A DNA stretch of 64,000 nt from Minisyncoccia bacterium (GTDB lineage Bacteria > Patescibacteriota > Minisyncoccia > Phycocordibacterales > UBA918). Location of the stretch: positions 44,251 through 108,250 of the forward strand of contig JBKJIT010000001.1 in assembly GCA_046598345.1 (NCBI GenBank). The letters run 5' to 3'. The notes under the pieces are model-generated. The model was given only the letters and a program-made list of their open reading frames with translations, was not told where the DNA came from and did no database searches. How positions within the stretch are numbered: the stretch's first letter is position 1; each line of letters opens with the position of its first letter. The position numbers and the translations under genes are program-made. Positions 4,444-61,747 of the stretch are shown here, piece by piece.

Positions 4444-4460
4444 ATTTACTTCAACAAAGG

Positions 4461-4514
4461 TTGTAAAACATACATTAAAACCGCTCTAAGGCGGTTTTAA
4501 TGTATGTTTTACAA
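4461..4514. terminator. 54-bp near-perfect palindrome / terminator after rplK
   Basis: ttgtaaaacatacattaaaaccgc-tctaag-gcggttttaatgtatgttttacaa. Confidence 0.6.
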
Positions 4515-4575
4515 CCTGAACTGCGGGCGGTATGCCGCAGACGTGAAGTCGTCCCGCCCATCACATTCGCGATTT

Positions 4576-4613
4576 AAAAAGCAAAAATCCGCCCTAGGCG
4601 GATTTTTGCTTTT
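4576..4613. terminator. Second perfect hairpin terminator
   Basis: aaaagcaaaaatccgcc-ctag-ggcggatttttgctttt. Confidence 0.6.
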
Positions 4614-4734
4614 TAACACCTCAGAAACTTGCTCATCCTTGAATTAGTGGTATAACTGGCATGGGTGATGGAAGCTTTTCATGTTCCAGAGGACCCACGT
4701 ACATTTTCAACAATCGTTTTTGTGAGGTAAAAGA

Positions 4735-6298: not shown

Positions 6299-6973
6299 AT
6301 GTCACAGTATGAGATTGAGGTAAAAACGCTTTTGGGAGAAAAAGTAAATGCGGACGCGCTTAAAGCCCGCATGTGTGAACTTGACCCGTCGTCTACCTGT
6401 ACAAGCACCAACCGTCAGCTCAATCATTATTTTGAAGGTGGCGATCTTCAGACGCTTTTTTCTAAAACAGAACATTTGTTTTCAGATGAGATAAAAGAAA
6501 AATTTCAGCACATTGCAGAAAAAGGGTCCGATTTTTCAGTTAGAACAAGACAAAAAGATGAACAAGTCCTTCTTGTTGTAAAAGCTTCGGTTGATGAGGG
6601 GACGAGCTCAAATGCCGTTTCGAGACTGGAATTTGAAGAAGCGGTTCCTGTGATGCTCCGTGAACTTGATACACTTGTGCTTGAAGCAGGATTTGCCTAT
6701 CAAGCAAAGTGGTCTCGCGAGCGAGAAGAGTACAGCTACAAAGGAGCAAATGTGTGCATCGATCGCAACGCAGGGTATGGCTATCTTGCAGAGTTTGAAA
6801 AAGTGGTAAGTGACGAATCCACACTTACTGATGTCCGAAAAGAAATTGATGCACTTATGATGGAGCTTGGTGTGGAGGAATTAAGACAAGATCGACTTGA
6901 GCGTATGTTCGCATTTTACAATACCAACTGGCCCGATTACTACGGAACCGATAAAACCTTTTTGATAGAATAA
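6299..6973 (+). CDS. CYTH-domain protein (class IV adenylyl cyclase / triphosphatase fold)
   Basis: N-terminal EIEVK motif and a distribution of acidic/basic residues typical of CYTH. Confidence 0.6.
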   Translation: MSQYEIEVKTLLGEKVNADALKARMCELDPSSTCTSTNRQLNHYFEGGDLQTLFSKTEHLFSDEIKEKFQHIAEKGSDFSVRTRQKDEQVLLVVKASVDEGTSSNAVSRLEFEEAVPVMLRELDTLVLEAGFAYQAKWSREREEYSYKGANVCIDRNAGYGYLAEFEKVVSDESTLTDVRKEIDALMMELGVEELRQDRLERMFAFYNTNWPDYYGTDKTFLIE

Positions 6974-6982
6974 TTTTGTAAC

Positions 6983-7564
6983 ATGTTTCTTTCAGACGTT
7001 GATATTATCGAAGCAGTAAAGAAGGGAGAAATAACCCTTAAGCCTTTTTTTGAATCGCGCCTCCAGCCTGCAAGCTACGACATTTTGCTCGGTAATAAGT
7101 TTGTGGTGAATGAGGAAAACAGCACGTACTTTGTAGATCCAGCAAAAAAGATTTATGCAAAAACGAGAGAAATTTCTGTAAAGGACGGTCAGGAATTTGT
7201 GTTGCATCCAGGGGTATCAGTACTAGGTACTTCAAAAGAGTTTTTTGGCTCCAATGAATATCTCATACAAGTAGGGGGAAAATCATCTCTTGCGCGCGTT
7301 GGCCTCATGATTCATAACACTGCAGGACTTATTAATCCCGGGCATTTTCTCCATATTACGTTTGAACTATGTAACCTGAATAACGTTCCAATCATTCTTC
7401 GTCCTGGTATGGAAATAGCTCAGCTCACATTCTCAAAAATTTCTTCGCCCACGCGCCAGAGCTACGAGCAGGTAGGTCGTTTTGCTAAGGATAATTGGAA
7501 AAACTTTGCAGAACCGAAAAAGAAGACAGTGAAAAAGAAAAGCGTACCAGCTAAGAAAAAATAA
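6983..7564 (+). CDS. dcd: dCTP deaminase
   Basis: MFLSDVDIIEAV..., ASYDILLG and GxxGLINPG patterns of the Dcd/dUTPase fold; Lys-rich C-terminal tail. Confidence 0.85.
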   Translation: MFLSDVDIIEAVKKGEITLKPFFESRLQPASYDILLGNKFVVNEENSTYFVDPAKKIYAKTREISVKDGQEFVLHPGVSVLGTSKEFFGSNEYLIQVGGKSSLARVGLMIHNTAGLINPGHFLHITFELCNLNNVPIILRPGMEIAQLTFSKISSPTRQSYEQVGRFAKDNWKNFAEPKKKTVKKKSVPAKKK

Positions 7565-9946: not shown

Positions 9947-9970
9947 TTTGATACGGTACAATGAGCAATT

Positions 9971-11065
9971 ATGGATTTTGTTTCAAGGAATAAGTGGCGC
10001 TCACTCTTTGAACTCGGGAAGAGGCATCTCCTCACGGTTTCGTTCTTTCTCGGATTCATTATAGACAGTTTTACGCTCAACAGGATTGATCAAACCTTTG
10101 ATATAGCAGTACTTCTTTTCTATATCATCCTCACCATGGTATCGATGATCCTCCTCTATGGCAGTGTGTCTGAGAAGTATTTTGAAAGACTAAACCCGTT
10201 CTTTAAAAAGTGGTCGCCCTATCTCATTCAGTACTCTTTCGGAGGATTGCTTTCCGGTATGCTCATTTTTTATGGCAGAAGCGGTGCTTTTTATGAAAGT
10301 TGGCCATTCATGCTCATGATCATTGCTGCGGTATACGGCAATGAAACCATTAAAGACAGGGCAACTCGCCTCGTGTACAACCTAGGTATGTTTTTTGTTG
10401 GCATGTTTGCGCTCGTTGTTCTTATGGTCCCTGTCTTCTTAGGTAAAATGGGGCCGCTCGTATTTATGGGGAGCGGACTCATCGCACTCACCATTATGTA
10501 TTGGTTTGTACGAGTACTTACATATATGGTCCCTAACTTTATGGCGCTCCAGCGAAAGAGCGCGGTCTTCACGATCGGTATCATTTTTGCAGTCTTCAAC
10601 TTTCTCTATTTTGCCAACATTATTCCTCCAATCCCGCTCTCTCTCAAAGAAGTTGGCATATATCACGGCGTTGTGCGTTTTGACAATGATACCTATCAAG
10701 TCACCTATGAAAAGCCAAAGTGGTGGGAATTTTCTCAGGATTCGGACAAAACATTTCACAGCGCTCCCGGCGATAATATATTTTGTTTTGCATCAGTCTT
10801 TGCCCCAACAAGACTTGCTACGAACATTTACCATCGGTGGGAGTTTTATAATGAAAAAACAAAAAATTGGATTGACCACGGACGGTATGCGTATGCAATT
10901 TCAGGAGGAAGAGGGGACGGCTTTCGGGGATATACAATGATTTCAAATTACGAGGAAGGAGCATGGCGCTGTACGGTCGAGACTGAGCGCGGACAATCTC
11001 TGGGTCGTGTCGATTTTGAGGTAGTGCCTGGAGAAAAACGTGAGCTCGTGACACAGATTAAATAG
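9971..11065 (+). CDS. Polytopic membrane protein with a C-terminal soluble domain; function unknown
   Basis: About 7 hydrophobic helices followed by a roughly 150-aa hydrophilic domain (Trp/Tyr-rich). No recognisable catalytic motif. Confidence 0.5.
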   Translation: MDFVSRNKWRSLFELGKRHLLTVSFFLGFIIDSFTLNRIDQTFDIAVLLFYIILTMVSMILLYGSVSEKYFERLNPFFKKWSPYLIQYSFGGLLSGMLIFYGRSGAFYESWPFMLMIIAAVYGNETIKDRATRLVYNLGMFFVGMFALVVLMVPVFLGKMGPLVFMGSGLIALTIMYWFVRVLTYMVPNFMALQRKSAVFTIGIIFAVFNFLYFANIIPPIPLSLKEVGIYHGVVRFDNDTYQVTYEKPKWWEFSQDSDKTFHSAPGDNIFCFASVFAPTRLATNIYHRWEFYNEKTKNWIDHGRYAYAISGGRGDGFRGYTMISNYEEGAWRCTVETERGQSLGRVDFEVVPGEKRELVTQIK

Positions 11066-21682: not shown

Positions 21683-23122
21683 ATGGCTGCGCGCTATCTC
21701 ACGACAACCCTTCCGTATGTAAATGACGACCCTCACATCGGACATGCGCTTGAGTTTGTGCAGGCTGATTCACTCGCACGATATTGGCGACTTATGGGCC
21801 ATGAGGTTTTTTTTAACACGGGTACCGACGAACATGGACAAAAAATTTCTCGTAAAGCAGACGAAAAGGGAGAAGAAAGACAAGCGTATGTTGATCATTT
21901 TGCCTCACGTTTCAAAGATTCACTTCAGGTCCTTAATCTTTCCTATGACGCCTTTATTCGTACCACAAACGAAAATCATAAAAAAGCAGCGCAGGAACTC
22001 TGGAAGCTGTGCGCGGCTAGAGGTGATATCTATAAGAAAAAATACAGCGGACTGTACTGCGTCGGGTGTGAGTCTTTTAAAAAGGACTCCGATTTAGTTA
22101 ATGGTCTATGTCCTGATCATCAAAAAGCACCGGAAGTTATTGAGGAAGAGAATTATTTTTTCGCACTCTCGAAGTACCAAGGATACATCGAAGACTACCT
22201 TGCTCGTGAAGGCGTTATTGTGCCCGAGTGGAGGAGGCAGGAAGCACTTAATTTCGTAAAAGATGGACTTGAAGATTTCAGCATTTCTCGCGAAAAGACC
22301 CGTATGAATTGGGGGGTTGATGTCCCCGGTGATGATACACATGTCATGTACGTGTGGTTTGATGCGCTCACTAACTATATCTCGACCTTAGGATGGCCAG
22401 AAGATGAAGGGGGATGCTATAAGAAATTTTGGGAAAAAGGGAGTCCCATGCAAATGGCCGGAAAGGATCAAGTACGTTTCCAATCGATCATGTGGCAGGC
22501 AATGCTTAAGTCAGCTGGGCTGCCTCCCACTTTCACTGTTTTGTATCATGGGTTTATTAATTCTGGAGGTCAAAAAATGAGCAAGTCGATAGGAAACGTG
22601 ATTAGTCCGTTCGACATCATTAAAAAATATGGAACCGATGCAACCCGCTATCTGCTCTTGCGTCACGTGCATCCCTTTGATGATACCGATATCACACACG
22701 ATCGACTCGATGAGTGGTTTAATGCGCATCTTGCAAACGGACTTGGTAATCTCGTCTCCCGCGTAATGAAAATGGCAGAAGATAACCTCGACGCCCCCGT
22801 TCCTGTCACTGCTGCGCCACTCGAAGAAGCCTTTACGAAGCATATGGATATGTATCGCTTTGACGAGGCAATGAACCTCATTTTCGAACACATTGGCAAA
22901 GGGGATCAGTATATCCAAGACACGCTTCCATTTAAAAAGATAAAATCTGAAAATCCTGAAGAGGTAAAAGAAGGGAAAGCGGTGATCGAGAAATTGGTTC
23001 AGCATATCTACCGCATTTCGGAACACCTCGTGCCGTTTATGCCTGAAACTGCAGAAAAAATTATGCAGGCGGTGCGAGAAAACAAAAAACCTGAAACACT
23101 TTTTGCGAGAATTGAAGCATAA
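21683..23122 (+). CDS. metG: Methionine--tRNA ligase
   Basis: HIGH (PHIGHALE), KMSKS (GQKMSKSIGN), Zn knuckle CxxC...CPDH. Confidence 0.9.
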   Translation: MAARYLTTTLPYVNDDPHIGHALEFVQADSLARYWRLMGHEVFFNTGTDEHGQKISRKADEKGEERQAYVDHFASRFKDSLQVLNLSYDAFIRTTNENHKKAAQELWKLCAARGDIYKKKYSGLYCVGCESFKKDSDLVNGLCPDHQKAPEVIEEENYFFALSKYQGYIEDYLAREGVIVPEWRRQEALNFVKDGLEDFSISREKTRMNWGVDVPGDDTHVMYVWFDALTNYISTLGWPEDEGGCYKKFWEKGSPMQMAGKDQVRFQSIMWQAMLKSAGLPPTFTVLYHGFINSGGQKMSKSIGNVISPFDIIKKYGTDATRYLLLRHVHPFDDTDITHDRLDEWFNAHLANGLGNLVSRVMKMAEDNLDAPVPVTAAPLEEAFTKHMDMYRFDEAMNLIFEHIGKGDQYIQDTLPFKKIKSENPEEVKEGKAVIEKLVQHIYRISEHLVPFMPETAEKIMQAVRENKKPETLFARIEA

Positions 23123-23210
23123 AAAAATCTACAACAAACTAGTTCGCGACAAAACGATCGATATCGACAACATGATGTTGAAGAAAGAATCTGTGCAGGA
23201 AGATATTAAG

Positions 23211-23258
23211 TACATAACCATCACTATTCCGGTTAACCGGAATAGTGATGGTTATGTA
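23211..23258. repeat. Perfect 48-bp palindrome between the convergent metG and HTH gene; contains the ATTCCGGTTAACCGGAAT core
   Basis: tacataaccatcactattccggtt|aaccggaatagtgatggttatgta; likely a bidirectional terminator. Confidence 0.7.
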
Positions 23259-23656
23259 CTCCGGTAGCGGTCGAGTCCAACTCGATGCGGAAGTAGATCT
23301 CCGAGATGAAAAATTGAATCGAGAGTATCAATGAGTTTGAAGTAATCTCGCTTTTTTTTCATGAGCAATCTGATAATACCGGCATATCCTCCCGACTCTA
23401 TTTTGAGTGCAATTATTCCGGTAGTTGTAGGACTGAGTTTAAGTAGGCGAGAGGTTTTATACTGAGAATATCCTTCGGAGATAAGTATAATAGCCGCAAG
23501 TCGCTTTGCAACGGTAAGTCGTTCTTCTTTTCCAAGAAGCTCATCAAGAAAGATTGTCGTTGCACGAGGGTTGAGTTTTGTAAGTATCAAATCAAATTGT
23601 CGCATTAAACGAACCACGTCATGTGGAGACAGTTGATTGCGATTTACATTAACCAT
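23252..23656 (-). CDS. TrpR/YerC-YecD-family small HTH protein
   Basis: LSPHDVVRLMRQFDLI...LLGKEERLTVAKRLAAIILISEGYSQYKTSRLLKLSPTTT resembles the Trp-repressor-like fold. I chose the start at the internal Met, because the longer ORF would overlap tatD. Confidence 0.5.
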   Translation of the reverse strand: MVNVNRNQLSPHDVVRLMRQFDLILTKLNPRATTIFLDELLGKEERLTVAKRLAAIILISEGYSQYKTSRLLKLSPTTTGIIALKIESGGYAGIIRLLMKKKRDYFKLIDTLDSIFHLGDLLPHRVGLDRYRST

Positions 23657-23676
23657 TAGTACTAGTATATCAAATA

Positions 23677-23694
23677 TTCCGGTTAACCGGAATA
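23677..23694. promoter_or_regulatory. Second copy of the 18-bp perfect palindrome ATTCCGGTTAACCGGAAT in the divergent promoter region (candidate operator)
   Basis: Lies between the HTH gene start (23656) and the tatD start (23728). The adjacent TAGTACTAGTATA is also palindromic. Confidence 0.45.
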
Positions 23695-23727
23695 ATATTT
23701 GTGGTACTTCTATGATAATGTTAAGAG

Positions 23728-24576
23728 ATGATGGAGTATAAATACATTGATGTGCACTCACATATTCACGGCAGAGAATTTGATGCCGATCGAGGAGAAG
23801 TACTTTTGCGTATGCAAAACGAAGGGATTGCAACGATTGCGATTGGTACGGGCCTTGAAACGAGTAAGGCAGCAATTTCTGTTGCAGAGAAAAATGAACA
23901 TGTGTATGCAACGGTGGGACTCCATCCAGTTGACGATACGGAAGAACCTTTTAACGAAGCAGACTTCCGAACGCTTCTTGCGCACCCTAAAGTTGTGGGA
24001 TTGGGAGAGTGCGGACTCGACTATCACTACATTGAAACTTTCTTTGAAAAGGAAAAAGTTAAGAACGGCTGGACGCATACCAAAGATGCCGAAGCAGACA
24101 GACAGCGTGAACTTTTTGAACGACAGATTACGCTTGCAGTCGAAATGGGGAAGCCACTCATGCTCCATGGTCGTCCATCTCCAAAAACCATGGATGCATA
24201 TGAAGACATGCTCTATATGCTTAAAAATGCAGCGACAAGATATGGAGATCGACTCAGAGGTAATTTTCACTTTTTTGTCGGAAACGTAGAAATTGCAAAA
24301 CAGGTTCTCGACATCGGTTTTACAATGAGTTTTTCGGGTGTCATCACCTTTGCTCATGATTATGATGATGTAGTCCGCTATGTTCCTCTCACCACAATGC
24401 ACGCAGAAACAGATTCGCCCTACGCCGCCCCGGTGCCTTTCCGTGGAAAACGAAATGAGCCGACGTTTGTGAAGGAAATCTACACATATATCGCAACTGT
24501 CAGGAACGAAGACGAGGAAAAAGTAAGAGCAACACTCATTCAAAATGCACAACGAGTATTCCAAATAGTAATGTAA
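23728..24576 (+). CDS. tatD: TatD-family metal-dependent hydrolase/DNase
   Basis: IDVHSHIH, GLHP, GECGLDYHY, MLHGR..., FHFF... motifs. Confidence 0.85.
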   Translation: MMEYKYIDVHSHIHGREFDADRGEVLLRMQNEGIATIAIGTGLETSKAAISVAEKNEHVYATVGLHPVDDTEEPFNEADFRTLLAHPKVVGLGECGLDYHYIETFFEKEKVKNGWTHTKDAEADRQRELFERQITLAVEMGKPLMLHGRPSPKTMDAYEDMLYMLKNAATRYGDRLRGNFHFFVGNVEIAKQVLDIGFTMSFSGVITFAHDYDDVVRYVPLTTMHAETDSPYAAPVPFRGKRNEPTFVKEIYTYIATVRNEDEEKVRATLIQNAQRVFQIVM

Positions 24577-29746: not shown

Positions 29747-29750
29747 AAGT

Positions 29751-29784
29751 AAAACACCCGCGGCCGAAGGCCGCGGGTGTTTTA
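29751..29784 (+). terminator. Rho-independent terminator after rpsR
   Basis: aaaacacccgcggcc-gaa-ggccgcgggtgtttt. Confidence 0.7.
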
Positions 29785-30413
29785 CTATAAGAAACCCCGC
29801 ACATAGTGCGGGGGACGGCAGAAGGAGTTAACCATTAGCCTAAAAGTTTGTTGGTACGAACTGGTTATTCGTGGCTGGCTTTAAACCCGCGCCTACGATT
29901 TTAGCGAAAAAAATCACCGGATTAAATTCACCCACTTTCCACCGCGAATTGCACCGTGTGCCTCCTACTGGACACCGGCTGTTACGCACCATGCGCGCAC
30001 ACTTACTGTGTCCAGGAAAACGATTGCACTGCATACGCATGCTCTTCTCCTTCTGTAAGAACAAAAGAAGCCCTCCGGGATGAAGGGCTTCTTGGTAGTT
30101 AATGTATGTTGAGTAGATTACGCACAAAGAAGACCTCCATCGGAATGGTTCTTGACCAGGAAGGTAATCGTATACATGTGCGCTGTTGGCATACTTTTAG
30201 AATATCAGAGGTAAAATTTTCGTCAATTTAAACTCGTTAATTACATTCTGGACAATCCTACGGTAATTCTTTAAAGCCCTCGTCACATCTAAAGTTTTTT
30301 GAGAACCCTCATATACAAGGCGCTGAGGAGTGGTTGCTGGAGACGTATTCAATATACGGTGACAGTTACCACGACGAAAGCAACGCAGTAGATGAGGGAG
30401 TATCAAAAATACT

Positions 30414-37106: not shown

Positions 37107-37808
37107 TTGTTGTGTCCTATTAAATATGGGACACACTTTTTTATATACACTAATTAAAGACTTTTATAGAACTGTGACCCCTGTCTTCAAAAGAATCATC
37201 CACTACTTAATGAATAACCAGTGAAAATTAGGAGCTGAAAGGGTGTAAGAAGTGTTTATATGAAGCGTCATAAAAAGCAGAGGAGGGCTTATTTTTGTTG
37301 ACTTTATGTCTTCATGAACGTATGCTCTCAGGCATCTTGGGGACTTGGATTTAGGCCTAAAAGCTTGGTGTATAAACACATATCCACATCTCTTTGAGCA
37401 ACAGTTCAGTAAATTATTTGTATACTGGACATTGTGCGTCTTAGCGCGCTCTTTTTTAACAAGGAGAGAACGTCAGGACTTGTTCTTTGAAAAATCGAAG
37501 TTTCGTCACATACCTATAATGTGTATGAGCGCGGCTTTGAGTTTGGTAGAGTTGTCTACTGAATCTTATATACGTTTAGAACGTACTTAATAGAGTACAA
37601 AAATACAGCATGACCTTGTTCTGTTATGGTAGATAATTCTGAGTCTCAGTTACATTTTCGTAGCTAAACCGTATATATGGGGTGTCGACCCGTTAACATA
37701 TATACGGGCTTAGTGATATGCGTGAGCAGTTCTTCGACGGACTGTTCGCGAATAAGAATTAATTCTTATTATTAGTTTTAGAAGTAATTACTACAAGTAA
37801 TACAGTTT

Positions 37809-40010: not shown

Positions 40011-40775
40011 CCCACGGAGGCCGGACCTCCGGAATATTCCGGAGGTCCGGCCTCCGTGGGTGTTATACTAAACCTATGTCTCAACGCAAAATCCAGTTTT
40101 CACCGGGAGAGTATTATCACATATATAATCGCGGAAATAGCAAGCAAGACATTTTCAGAGATGAGAGAGATTATATGCGTTTTCAATCTCTTCTGTACAT
40201 TGCAAATGGAACAAAATCATTTGAATTCAGGGAAGCACGTAAGGATGAAATATTCGATTTTGATAAGGGAGAGCAACTCGTGTATATAGGAGCGTACTGT
40301 TTAATGCCTAATCACTTCCACATTCTGATAACTCCTGCAAAAGAGAAAGGAATTCAATTATTTACACAGAAACTCGCAACGGGATACTCAATGTATTTTA
40401 ATAAGAAATATGAACGGGTAGGCGGATTATTTGAAGGGAGGTTCAAATCTAAGCATGCGTATTCAGATCAATATTTAAAATATTTATTTTCTTACATTCA
40501 CCTTAATCCAACTAAACTCATTCAATCTGATTGGAAAGAAGTGGGAATACGAAATTTGAATTATACAAAAGGCTATGTAGAACAATATCGTTACTCAAGT
40601 CTTCAAGATTACCTAAGTAAGCGTCTGGAAAGTTCTATATTAAATAATGAAAAATTTCCAGAATACTTTTTAGGGAAGAAAGAAATTGACTCCGAATTAC
40701 TCCAATGGCTTACCTACAAGGAAACATCACCAGAATTAATTTGACTTCTTCCGGAGGTCCGGCCTCCGGAAGAAG
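40011..40775 (+). mobile_element. IS200/IS605-like / REP-associated tyrosine transposase (RAYT) unit flanked by REP-like palindromes
   Basis: A 50-bp perfect palindrome at 40011-40060 and a related palindrome at 40745-40775 share the ccggaggtccggcctccgg core and bracket a Y1-transposase gene. Confidence 0.7.
40076..40744 (+). CDS. tnpA: Y1 (HUH) tyrosine transposase, IS200-like/RAYT
   Basis: YHIYNRGN, HUH motif (MPNHFHILI), catalytic Tyr region (YIHLNP). Confidence 0.8.
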   Translation: MSQRKIQFSPGEYYHIYNRGNSKQDIFRDERDYMRFQSLLYIANGTKSFEFREARKDEIFDFDKGEQLVYIGAYCLMPNHFHILITPAKEKGIQLFTQKLATGYSMYFNKKYERVGGLFEGRFKSKHAYSDQYLKYLFSYIHLNPTKLIQSDWKEVGIRNLNYTKGYVEQYRYSSLQDYLSKRLESSILNNEKFPEYFLGKKEIDSELLQWLTYKETSPELI

Positions 40776-60998: not shown

Positions 60999-61006
60999 CG
61001 ACATAG

Positions 61007-61048
61007 ATACTAAAAAACACTGCCGTTTCCAGCAGTGTTTTTTAGTAT
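61007..61048. terminator. Bidirectional terminator (perfect 17-bp stem)
   Basis: atactaaaaaacactgc-cgtttcca-gcagtgttttttagtat. Confidence 0.7.
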
Positions 61049-61747
61049 CTATGAATGAATGCGCGTACCAATAAACGGTTCGCCTTCCAAGTACTTTTCA
61101 ATTTCTTCTGGCTTCTTACCATTGATGATGACGACTTCAATGTGAGCCGCTTCCGCCTCGCGCGCAGCGACCGGATCGAATGGGGAAGAGAGTCCAGGAT
61201 TCCATTCAGTTGGAATTAATTTTAAAAACTCGTGCCAGGTAATATCCTCGATTTTTTCTGCAGTAAGATCAGTGCGTGGATCTGCAGTGTAGACATAATT
61301 GATGTTTGAGAGATTCATGAGTTTTGTCGCCCCACGGTGTTTTGCAATTTGTACCGCGCGAAGATCAGTCGATGACCCAGGACGATACCCCGCTGCGATA
61401 ACGAGCGGTGTTGCTCTGGGTACGTCGATGATGTCATCAGGGTTCGTGATCATAACAGGGTGTGCGATGTCGCGAAAGATCGTGCGGAGCAAATGTCCAT
61501 TGAGGCGCGTTGCATGAATACCCATCCAGTCAATGTCCTCAGGATCAAGTTCCGAAACTGAGCCTGCTGCTTCTTGATAACGCCGAGCAGTCTTTCCACC
61601 TCCTGCGATTATAATAAAATGTCGCCCATACGCGGCGATCTGATGTTCAATAAGCGCCTTTAGATCGGAGAGAAACGAAGTGTCTATTTGATCGGGAACA
61701 ATGAGTGAACCCCCGACCGACATAACCACTGTTTCTTCACGCTGCAT
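61049..61747 (-). CDS. pyrH: Uridylate (UMP) kinase, archaeal-type
   Basis: Amino-acid-kinase fold: SVGGSLIVPD, IIAGGGKTARRY, DWMGIHATRLNGHLL, AAGYRPGSSTD, NYVYTADP. This matches archaeal PyrH better than the bacterial enzyme. Confidence 0.7.
   Translation of the reverse strand: MQREETVVMSVGGSLIVPDQIDTSFLSDLKALIEHQIAAYGRHFIIIAGGGKTARRYQEAAGSVSELDPEDIDWMGIHATRLNGHLLRTIFRDIAHPVMITNPDDIIDVPRATPLVIAAGYRPGSSTDLRAVQIAKHRGATKLMNLSNINYVYTADPRTDLTAEKIEDITWHEFLKLIPTEWNPGLSSPFDPVAAREAEAAHIEVVIINGKKPEEIEKYLEGEPFIGTRIHS

Follow-up and report, generated by a model that had tools for sequence, protein, structure and literature searches.

A TrpR/HisR-like gene of Patescibacteria bracketed by two identical palindromes, the predicted operators of its own product

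Why should a small gene of an ultra-small bacterium (Patescibacteria) carry one and the same perfect palindrome in front of its start codon and again at its stop codon? The question is raised by a 64,000-nucleotide stretch of the Minisyncoccia bacterium contig JBKJIT010000001.1 (the window, by which we mean the whole stretch of DNA analysed, numbered from its first letter), in which a gene for a 134-aa helix-turn-helix (HTH) protein lies between a divergent tatD and a convergent metG and has a copy of the palindrome at each end (Table 1). The best explanation for the whole, to which we assign a probability of roughly 0.72, is that the gene encodes an autoregulating dimeric repressor of TrpR/HisR fold with operators at both ends of its own gene. 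Within this proposal, the prediction from sequence that the palindromes are operators of the HTH protein is made with high confidence, autorepression from the 5' site with moderate confidence, and the specific role of the 3' site with lower confidence.

The original prediction had placed two perfect copies of the 18-mer ATTCCGGTTAACCGGAAT on either side of the HTH gene, and this 18-mer does occur exactly twice in the window (23226-23243 and 23676-23693); at least two matches arose in 0 of 100 dinucleotide-preserving shuffles of the window, and the unit common to both copies is even longer, the 20-nt palindrome TATTCCGGTTAACCGGAATA. The 5' copy is centred 29 nt upstream of the HTH ATG and 43 nt upstream of the tatD ATG. 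Around the 3' copy extends a larger palindrome, first described as 48 bp long (23211-23258) and covering the stop codon; it exists and covers that codon as proposed, and its true size is 52 nt, in two 26-nt arms that are 100% complementary with no spacer between them. Open reading frame (ORF) and Pfam data likewise agree with the starts first given for the HTH gene (23656) and tatD (23728) and with the convergent metG. A genome search had been proposed as a check, and the palindrome proves not to be dispersed: no third ATTCCGGTTAACCGGAAT site with three or fewer mismatches exists in the 64-kb window, a relaxed TTCC-N8-GGAA pattern and a half-site search returned no other credible site there, and the flanks of the other loci are nearly free of copies, with none in 8-20 kb around 25 of them except for a third copy in two loci (L002 and L004). 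We therefore set aside a generic repetitive extragenic palindrome (REP) or miniature inverted-repeat transposable element. Two further resemblances within the locus were also rejected. An 11-nt match to a half-site and its flank (ATTATTCCGGT, 23412-23422), located inside the HTH gene in its recognition-helix codons (TGIIA), is absent from a locus with an identical operator (L001) and is taken as coincidence, and the likeness of the 3' palindrome arm ATGGTTATGTAC to the 5' end of the HTH gene ATGGTTAATGTA has no counterpart in other loci, the arm merely mirroring the last codons and the stop.

The palindrome pair recurs wherever homologues of the gene were followed up. The locus set comprised 19 fetched genome loci, five found by exact-protein look-up, a second paralogue in L007 and one distant member (L045), with homologues 36-70% identical from metagenome-assembled genomes (MAGs) of Saccharibacteria, Kaiserbacteria and Paceibacterota; presence counts below refer to 27 loci, and figures for geometry and half-sites to the 26 loci tabulated. 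A first hint came from gene calls of homologues that had been extended too far, in which IPVNWN or IPVNRN, the translated palindrome, appeared about 12 residues ahead of the true Met, and from one call with FPVNRK, also translated palindrome, beyond the true C-terminus. A perfect palindrome lies just 5' of the ATG in 27/27 loci and a matching one at the 3' end in 26/27. The 5' centre falls about 28 nt from the ATG (27-30 nt upstream in 21 loci) and the 3' centre between -6 and +19 nt of the end of the stop codon in 20, and in three loci (L002, L004 and L005) the palindrome is centred on the TAA stop codon. The two sites are spaced 439-567 nt from centre to centre, mostly 444-451 nt, with no signal of helical phasing, since the spacing simply follows gene length.

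What recurs is the pairing rather than one particular sequence. Across the tabulated loci we found 17 different 10-nt half-site types, as illustrated by TATTCCGGTTAACCGGAATA, TATTCCCATTAATGGGAATA, AACCTTCCATTCGAATGGAAGGTT, TACTCCAATCGATTGGAGTA and TATGTCGATTAATCGACATA, and in 23 of 26 loci the half-site at the 5' end agrees with that at the 3' end in all 10 nt, compared with 4.3% of cross-locus pairings, a level of agreement matched by 0 of 100,000 permutations. Paralogues in a single genome carry different palindrome pairs, as in one MAG with two such loci (L014 and L017) and in two L007 genes only 2.3 kb apart, which is the pattern expected for insulated specificities. Paralogues in L009 and L014 keep both palindromes whatever lies downstream of them.

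The form of the palindrome points to a protein that reads it. Its central 4 nt are always TTAA or TCGA and hence self-complementary, whereas the 22 other long perfect hairpins in the window, ordinary terminators, all have asymmetric loops (e.g., gaa, ttcg, gcaa or cta). A symmetric centre, at a place where the bases of a hairpin cannot pair, suggests that a symmetric dimer recognizes the duplex. At the 5' copy two genes start in opposite directions and there is nothing to terminate, which argues for a protein operator rather than a hairpin only. The predicted operator core, TATTCC-N8-GGAATA, is a 20-bp palindrome with half-sites 8 bp apart, the geometry of TrpR and HisR operators, which are 20-bp palindromes with the same half-site spacing (PMC9413887).

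Half-site sequence, moreover, covaries with the recognition helix predicted for the protein. Counting from the centre, position 5 is an invariant G and positions 6-8 read (G/A)A(A/G), except in L041, where position 7 is C. Helices of the form SPTTTGx accompany half-sites of the form xGGAATA, with Ile at the helix position where the base is C (three loci), Arg where it is G (two) and Lys or Asn where it is T (four); SQSTV goes with GGAGTA, SP(A/T)TA with G(G/A)AAGGTT, S(T/G)(S/A)TV with CGAA(A/G)GGTT, and SHSTTK with GACATA. In a 3kor profile alignment, extended by hand, the variable helix residue corresponds to Arg84 of Escherichia coli TrpR and the family-invariant Thr78 to TrpR Thr81, both listed among the DNA-contact residues of TrpR (PMC9413887). 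We regard this covariation as supportive, not conclusive. Together with the palindromes found at every 5' end and the repeats at all 3' ends but one, it lends strong support to the idea, first voiced for the promoter copy, that the palindrome is an operator.

The protein itself appears, from its modelled structure, to be a divergent relative of the TrpR/HisR family, not a scored member of the Pfam family. An AlphaFold (AF2) model built on a 39-sequence alignment (predicted local distance difference test score 82, predicted template-modelling score 0.73) is all-helical and TrpR-like, its HTH being formed by helices D and E, and TrpR, YerC-like or putative TrpR structures make up 15 of the 16 top matches when the model is compared with the Protein Data Bank (PDB) by Foldseek (3kor, 1trr, 3frw and 1tro among them; probability 0.9-1.0, target-normalised template-modelling score 0.55-0.69). 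A profile search of PDB sequences agrees weakly (3kor, the YerC-like protein of Staphylococcus aureus, E=0.022; 3g1c, 0.26; 3frw, 0.37), and 17 of 39 close homologues match Pfam Trp_repressor (PF01371) at E<=0.01, the best at 1.1e-6. The architecture consists of a TrpR-like core of about 95 aa plus helices, with no catalytic domain and with Pfam matches to HTH families only; the predicted recognition helix covers approximately residues 75-85 (SPTTTGIIALK), and a C-terminal motif, DSILHLGGxLPHRVGLDRYR, is strongly conserved. A DNA-binding fold is thus what the model predicts, as the initial reading of the protein would have it. The family counts 565 clusters at 50% identity with E<=1e-10 to the profile, nearly all of about 135 aa, and no relatives of the protein were found in viral, phage and plasmid collections.

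How would the 5' site act? In 24 of the 26 loci a TANNNT hexamer lies 3-11 nt, mostly 6-7 nt, upstream of the HTH ATG, in 15 of them with the TG of an extended -10 element, and a Shine-Dalgarno-like motif precedes the gene in only one locus. A -10 element just 7 nt from the ATG suggests that the HTH mRNA is probably leaderless. In the window the predicted 5' operator abuts the TG of the extended -10, so that it would span approximately -38 to -18 of the HTH promoter, a repressing position. On the other side its centre falls at approximately -43 of the predicted tatD promoter, and similar TGnTAnnnT elements are found on the tatD side of homologous loci; tatD is probably a co-regulated target, its control being plausible and less certain than autoregulation on account of a looser spacing. 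A second motif in this interval, TAGTACTAGTA (23657-23667), had been likened to the trp operator. It is present as reported, and it overlaps the -10 hexamer TATACT and the 7 nt before the ATG and varies freely among homologous loci, so we do not retain it as a second operator.

The 3' site invites two readings that probably both apply and are not separable here. Folded as RNA, its hairpin reaches -43 kcal/mol on the HTH side and -44 kcal/mol on the metG side (z about -10 for each strand), and it resembles the other long-stem terminators of this genome with the operator at its apex. The 52-nt palindrome, a hairpin in either transcript, thus probably terminates transcription in both directions, that of the HTH gene and that of the convergent metG unit; the tail after it is moderately U-rich on the HTH strand (UUAAUAUCUU), and the metG strand shows no U-tract. 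A terminator consensus scan, which counts at most 20 stem pairs, flagged the 5' copy and not the 3' one. In other loci the 3' copies extend to 20-64 nt and mirror the last codons and the stop. At the same time the 3' sequence equals the promoter operator through all 17 half-site types and is kept in paralogues whatever lies downstream, from which we infer that it is also bound by the protein, and its position implies that a polymerase stopped at the edge of the site could not reach the stop codon in most loci. The apparent terminators of this genome are in themselves unusually long: they are perfect hairpins whose stems measure 10-27 bp and whose loops are short and asymmetric, often with A- and T-tracts in the stem (e.g., 4458-4517, 4574-4616, 29748-29786 and 61002-61053).

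Taken together, we propose that the 134-aa product would form a dimeric repressor of TrpR/HisR fold that recognizes TATTCCGGTTAACCGGAATA through its TTCC-N8-GGAA half-sites and the adjoining specificity positions. Bound at the 5' site, beside the extended -10 element, it would shut off its own promoter and probably repress the divergent tatD promoter too. The 3' site would present the same operator at the apex of the stop-codon hairpin; the hairpin would end the HTH transcript and the convergent metG transcript, and protein bound there would serve as a second operator complex that blocks RNA polymerase from either side. In the sense direction this block would fall before the stop codon is transcribed, as for LacI at O3, and from the other side it would stop read-through from metG, whose strand has no U-tract there. 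A loop that joins the two sites across about 450 bp may form as well, and looping and roadblock are not mutually exclusive. A bolder extension is possible and is offered here tentatively: the unit may be a self-insulating autoregulatory module used across Patescibacteria, in which one bound palindrome acts both as promoter operator and as protein-dependent terminator or roadblock, giving non-stop autoregulation and a shield from the tRNA-synthetase operon, and which exists in many orthogonal protein-operator pairs with a readable code between residue 81 of the helix and base 4 of the half-site (candidate assignments: Arg with G, Ile with C, Lys or Asn with T).

Table 1. Features of the HTH locus in the window, with a paralogue from another locus (L007, own numbering) in the last line
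Feature	Position	Strand	Remarks
HTH gene, 134 aa, TrpR/HisR-like	23252..23656	-	ORF 23255-23656; ATG 23654-23656; stop TAA 23252-23254
5' palindrome TATTCCGGTTAACCGGAATA, predicted operator	23675..23694		20 bp, perfect; between the divergent HTH and tatD starts
3' palindrome, predicted operator	23225..23244		20-bp copy identical to the 5' one; centre 17 nt past the HTH stop codon
52-nt perfect palindrome around the 3' operator and stop codon	23209..23260		hairpin on both transcripts
Probable extended -10 promoter of HTH gene	23664..23672	-	TG 23671-23672; TATACT 23664-23669; 7 nt before ATG
Probable extended -10 promoter of tatD	23713..23721	+	TG-A-TAATGT; 6 nt before tatD ATG; inferred from sequence
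tatD (TatD-family DNase), divergent neighbour	23728..24576	+	Pfam TatD_DNase, E=1.5e-64
metG, convergent unit	21683..23122	+	Pfam tRNA-synt_1g, E=1e-99; transcripts enter the 3' palindrome
54-aa ORF (KKIYNKLVRDKTIDI...)	23103..23267	+	overlaps the metG end; reads through the 3' palindrome
Second HTH-family paralogue of L007, 141 aa	6735-7160 (unit 6696-7195)		own palindrome AACCTTTCGGTTAACCGAAAGGTT on both sides; convergent with metG

The genes around the palindrome pair are conserved in kind and in orientation. The order tatD / HTH / (variable genes) / metG-glyS/proS holds in 23 of 26 loci without any change of orientation; a divergent tatD, or a pair of HD_3 and tatD, is the neighbour in 23 of the 26 tabulated loci, and metG is convergent in 17 of 20 loci of one check and in 5/5 further loci. 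This conserved tatD-HTH-metG synteny argues against mobility. The variable genes include a MazG/PRA-PH-like nucleoside triphosphate (NTP) pyrophosphohydrolase, an HD_3 (YfbR-like) phosphohydrolase, which in some loci shares with tatD an operon that diverges from the HTH gene, and a serine hydrolase. The third palindrome copy of L002 and L004 stands between metG and the MazG-like gene, and in L004 its outer arms contain a likely ribosome-binding site, GGAG. In the window this position holds a 54-aa ORF, probably what decay has left of the N-terminal part of a gene for a MazG-like NTP pyrophosphohydrolase: its first residues, KKIYNKLVRDKTIDI, match the MazG-like start (compare MKKIYNKLVRDKMIDI of the 122-aa protein in L004), a full-length MazG-like gene stands at the same position in six loci (L003, L004, L005, L037, L041 and L042), and L002 has a similar remnant with a poly-A frameshift. 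A Pfam search gave no match for the 54-aa remnant. The recurring neighbours suggest a small regulon for nucleotide house-cleaning or salvage, a regulon and a ligand that we offer as conjecture.

Copies of the palindrome away from any HTH gene were seen in metagenome data. A metagenome collection contained 17 exact matches to ATTCCGGTTAACCGGAAT, of which only those in the related contigs L027 and L028 share the CACT...AGTG flanks; the other 15 have unrelated flanks, a GC content of 0.34-0.66 and no HTH, TatD or MetG homologue, and are treated as chance. The solo copy in L027 (within the region 250-480) is a 30-nt version, AACACTATTCCGGTTAACCGGAATAGTGTT, about 20 nt upstream of a NUDIX hydrolase gene, and on its other side lies a stretch of about 200 nt with long nested inverted repeats that looks like structured RNA; an Rfam search of L027 and L028 found nothing. 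The solo copy in L028 (2239-2278), a perfect palindrome of 40 nt, shares the 24-nt core and is placed where two convergent genes end, one for an FAD/NAD oxidoreductase and one for a multicopper oxidase (nirK-like).

Several observations weigh against the operator proposal, and some of them fit a structural reading better. The covariation between helix and operator is confounded by shared ancestry, with few independent changes. On the protein side the Foldseek E-values are weak (0.1-1.5), and the window protein scores 21.2 bits against PF01371, below the cut-off of 27 (E=3e-4), so that the TrpR/YerC assignment of the original prediction stands as to the modelled fold and the homologues that match the family, and not as to Pfam membership of this protein. 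The leaderless state of the HTH mRNA is a probable one, its transcription start being placed from a -10-like motif; the distance from operator to tatD start varies among loci (35-49 nt), and the 3' hairpin is followed by no U-tract on the metG strand. In one locus (L039) the pair differs, the 5' copy being TATTCCATTTAAATGGAATA within a 56-nt palindrome (GGAATA; 9947-10002) and the 3' copy TACTCCAATCGATTGGAGTA (GGAGTA; 10529-10554); the latter is the type found with paralogues that have an SQSTV helix and may reflect cross-regulation by such a paralogue. The same 24-26 nt stand away from any HTH gene in L027 and L028, the latter a 2.9-kb contig without an HTH gene where the site lies at a place at which no promoter is expected. 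Finally, most copies stay perfectly palindromic for several bases outside the shared core, and these flanks are not the same at the 5' and the 3' site; where the two copies disagree in L015 and in L017, the changes are mirrored within each copy. Stem pairing, or template switching that perfects palindromes, would produce such patterns. A hairpin or cruciform form may consequently matter at both sites besides protein binding, and some of the 5' flank symmetry may instead represent two mirror-image extended -10 elements. Taken to its end, this line of thought makes the palindromes structural hairpins only, terminator- or REP-like and unrelated to the HTH protein, with copies that match by local duplication or gene conversion and owe their symmetry to stem pairing or quasi-palindrome correction. 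A genome rich in long perfect hairpins, the stability of the 3' hairpin, the copy-specific symmetric flanks and the 40-nt version between convergent genes in L028 all speak for it. We nevertheless consider it quite unlikely, because the four nucleotides that would form the loop are always self-complementary, unlike the loops of ordinary hairpins in the window, because no transcript end is expected between divergent starts, and because the identical core of just 20-24 nt, between non-identical flanks, is shorter and more sharply delimited than gene conversion would leave it; nor would a mere hairpin be expected to track the recognition helix in its type, or to keep a fixed distance of 28 nt to the ATG and abut the TG of a -10 element.

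Two other accounts leave the protein in contact with the palindromes and differ in what the contact would be for. The palindrome-gene-palindrome unit could be a mobile or selfish module comparable to a REP-associated tyrosine transposase (RAYT) with its REPs, the HTH protein recognizing the flanking palindromes for its spread and leaving occasional solo copies elsewhere. The unit is self-contained, paralogues in unrelated contexts each have their own pair (the second copy of L007, L009, L014), the solo copies of L027 and L028 share extended flanks, and a genuine Y1-transposase gene with flanking palindromes of its own lies in the same window (40011-40775); yet the synteny described above spans very divergent lineages in one orientation, the protein has no catalytic domain, just two or three copies are found per 8-64 kb, and the phage, plasmid and viral collections hold no relatives, which also leads us to reject a phage, plasmid or viral origin. 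All told, mobility strikes us as highly improbable. GC skew is positive throughout the locus, and a replication origin or terminus or a dif-like site was rejected on that ground. It has somewhat more in its favour, while still being unlikely, that the protein binds both sites and has as its main job the insulation of tatD and house-cleaning genes (HD_3, MazG-like, Nudix) from a strongly expressed aminoacyl-tRNA-synthetase operon, as a local switch answering a nucleotide-related ligand. The kinds of variable neighbour, the third copy between metG and the MazG-like gene and the solo copy upstream of the NUDIX gene would suit such a role; against it, both palindromes persist in paralogues far from such genes, the geometry is tightly fixed towards the HTH gene and lax towards tatD, and the ligand is pure conjecture. 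This account extends the autoregulatory proposal rather than competing with it.

An autoregulating repressor with an operator at each end of its gene has partial precedents. With the TrpR/HisR family (YerC, PF01371) the window protein shares a small all-helical HTH architecture, the best structural matches (TrpR, 3kor and 3frw), the 20-bp palindromic operator with its 8-bp half-site spacing, and the counterpart of TrpR Thr81 in Thr78; about half of the hisR genes are autoregulated from an upstream site (PMC9413887). In contrast to TrpR and HisR, the window protein is some 30-40 aa longer and has the conserved C-terminal motif, which both of them lack; its operator reads TTCC-N8-GGAA instead of GNACT or TTTA, a second identical predicted operator lies at the gene's own stop codon, and its probable targets are tatD and nucleotide house-cleaning genes rather than amino-acid biosynthesis. 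In overall architecture the locus most resembles two-operator autoregulation, as in LacI with O1 and O3 or in phage repressors with looping operators. LacI bound at O3 blocks RNA polymerase before the lacI stop codon, giving a truncated transcript and an SsrA-tagged protein (PMC3711431). The lac arrangement likewise places an operator where the repressor gene ends and pairs it by looping with one at a promoter, features that are predicted from sequence in the present locus. It differs in that lac O3 is a weak auxiliary site of the neighbouring operon's control region and the lacI promoter has no operator of its own, whereas two identical perfect sites bracket the gene here and the 3' one is also a long hairpin. 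The CI repressor genes of the phages lambda (OL and OR) and 186 (flanking sites) are enclosed by operator sets for their own products, and looping sharpens autoregulation. They share this enclosed position with the HTH gene; their operators are imperfect, comprise multiple sites and stand 2-3 kb from each other as parts of a phage switch, whereas the palindromes here are single, perfect and separated by about 450 bp, in a chromosomal housekeeping setting with no phage association. RAYT genes, too, are flanked on both sides by lineage-specific palindromes; unlike them, the HTH gene has no HUH/Y1 catalytic domain, its palindromes are not dispersed genome-wide, its synteny is strict and one of its palindromes sits on the core promoter.

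Other palindromes near genes were noted in passing. The Y1 transposase of the window (222 aa, IS200-like/RAYT-like, 40076-40744; Pfam Y1_Tnp, E=1.3e-7) has a 50-nt perfect palindrome (40011-40060) on one side and a hairpin (40745-40775) on the other, with TTCCGGAGGTCCGGCCTCCG in common and no other copies in the window. A 20-nt perfect palindrome, AATAAGAATTAATTCTTATT (37751-37770), precedes by about 40 nt the start (37809) of a gene for a 676-aa secreted or repeat protein and may be an operator. In L007, a 59-aa MazE/AbrB-like gene (6422-6601, minus strand) has a 50-nt perfect palindrome directly upstream (6627-6676) with two TAGTACGTTC per arm; here, too, the promoter of a gene for a small DNA-binding protein carries a long perfect palindrome.

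The HTH protein belongs to a large family of Patescibacteria (Candidate Phyla Radiation, CPR) that is without a name and apparently undescribed; a full-text literature search found nothing on this protein family or on a palindrome-gene-palindrome arrangement in CPR bacteria. To our knowledge, CPR bacteria have very few transcription factors and almost no characterised regulation. If our proposal is true, a family-wide CPR regulator, its operator and its probable targets (its own gene, tatD and, in some lineages, MazG-like, HD_3 and Nudix genes) would have been read from sequence, and it would be an unusual architecture for a regulator gene to have one perfect operator sequence both in its promoter and within its terminator. 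With this arrangement, a simple heterologous system could serve to test autoregulation by a 3' roadblock, looping over a short range and insulation from convergent transcription, and the matched protein-operator variants would be a ready set for studying how HTH specificity evolves and possible orthogonal repressor parts.

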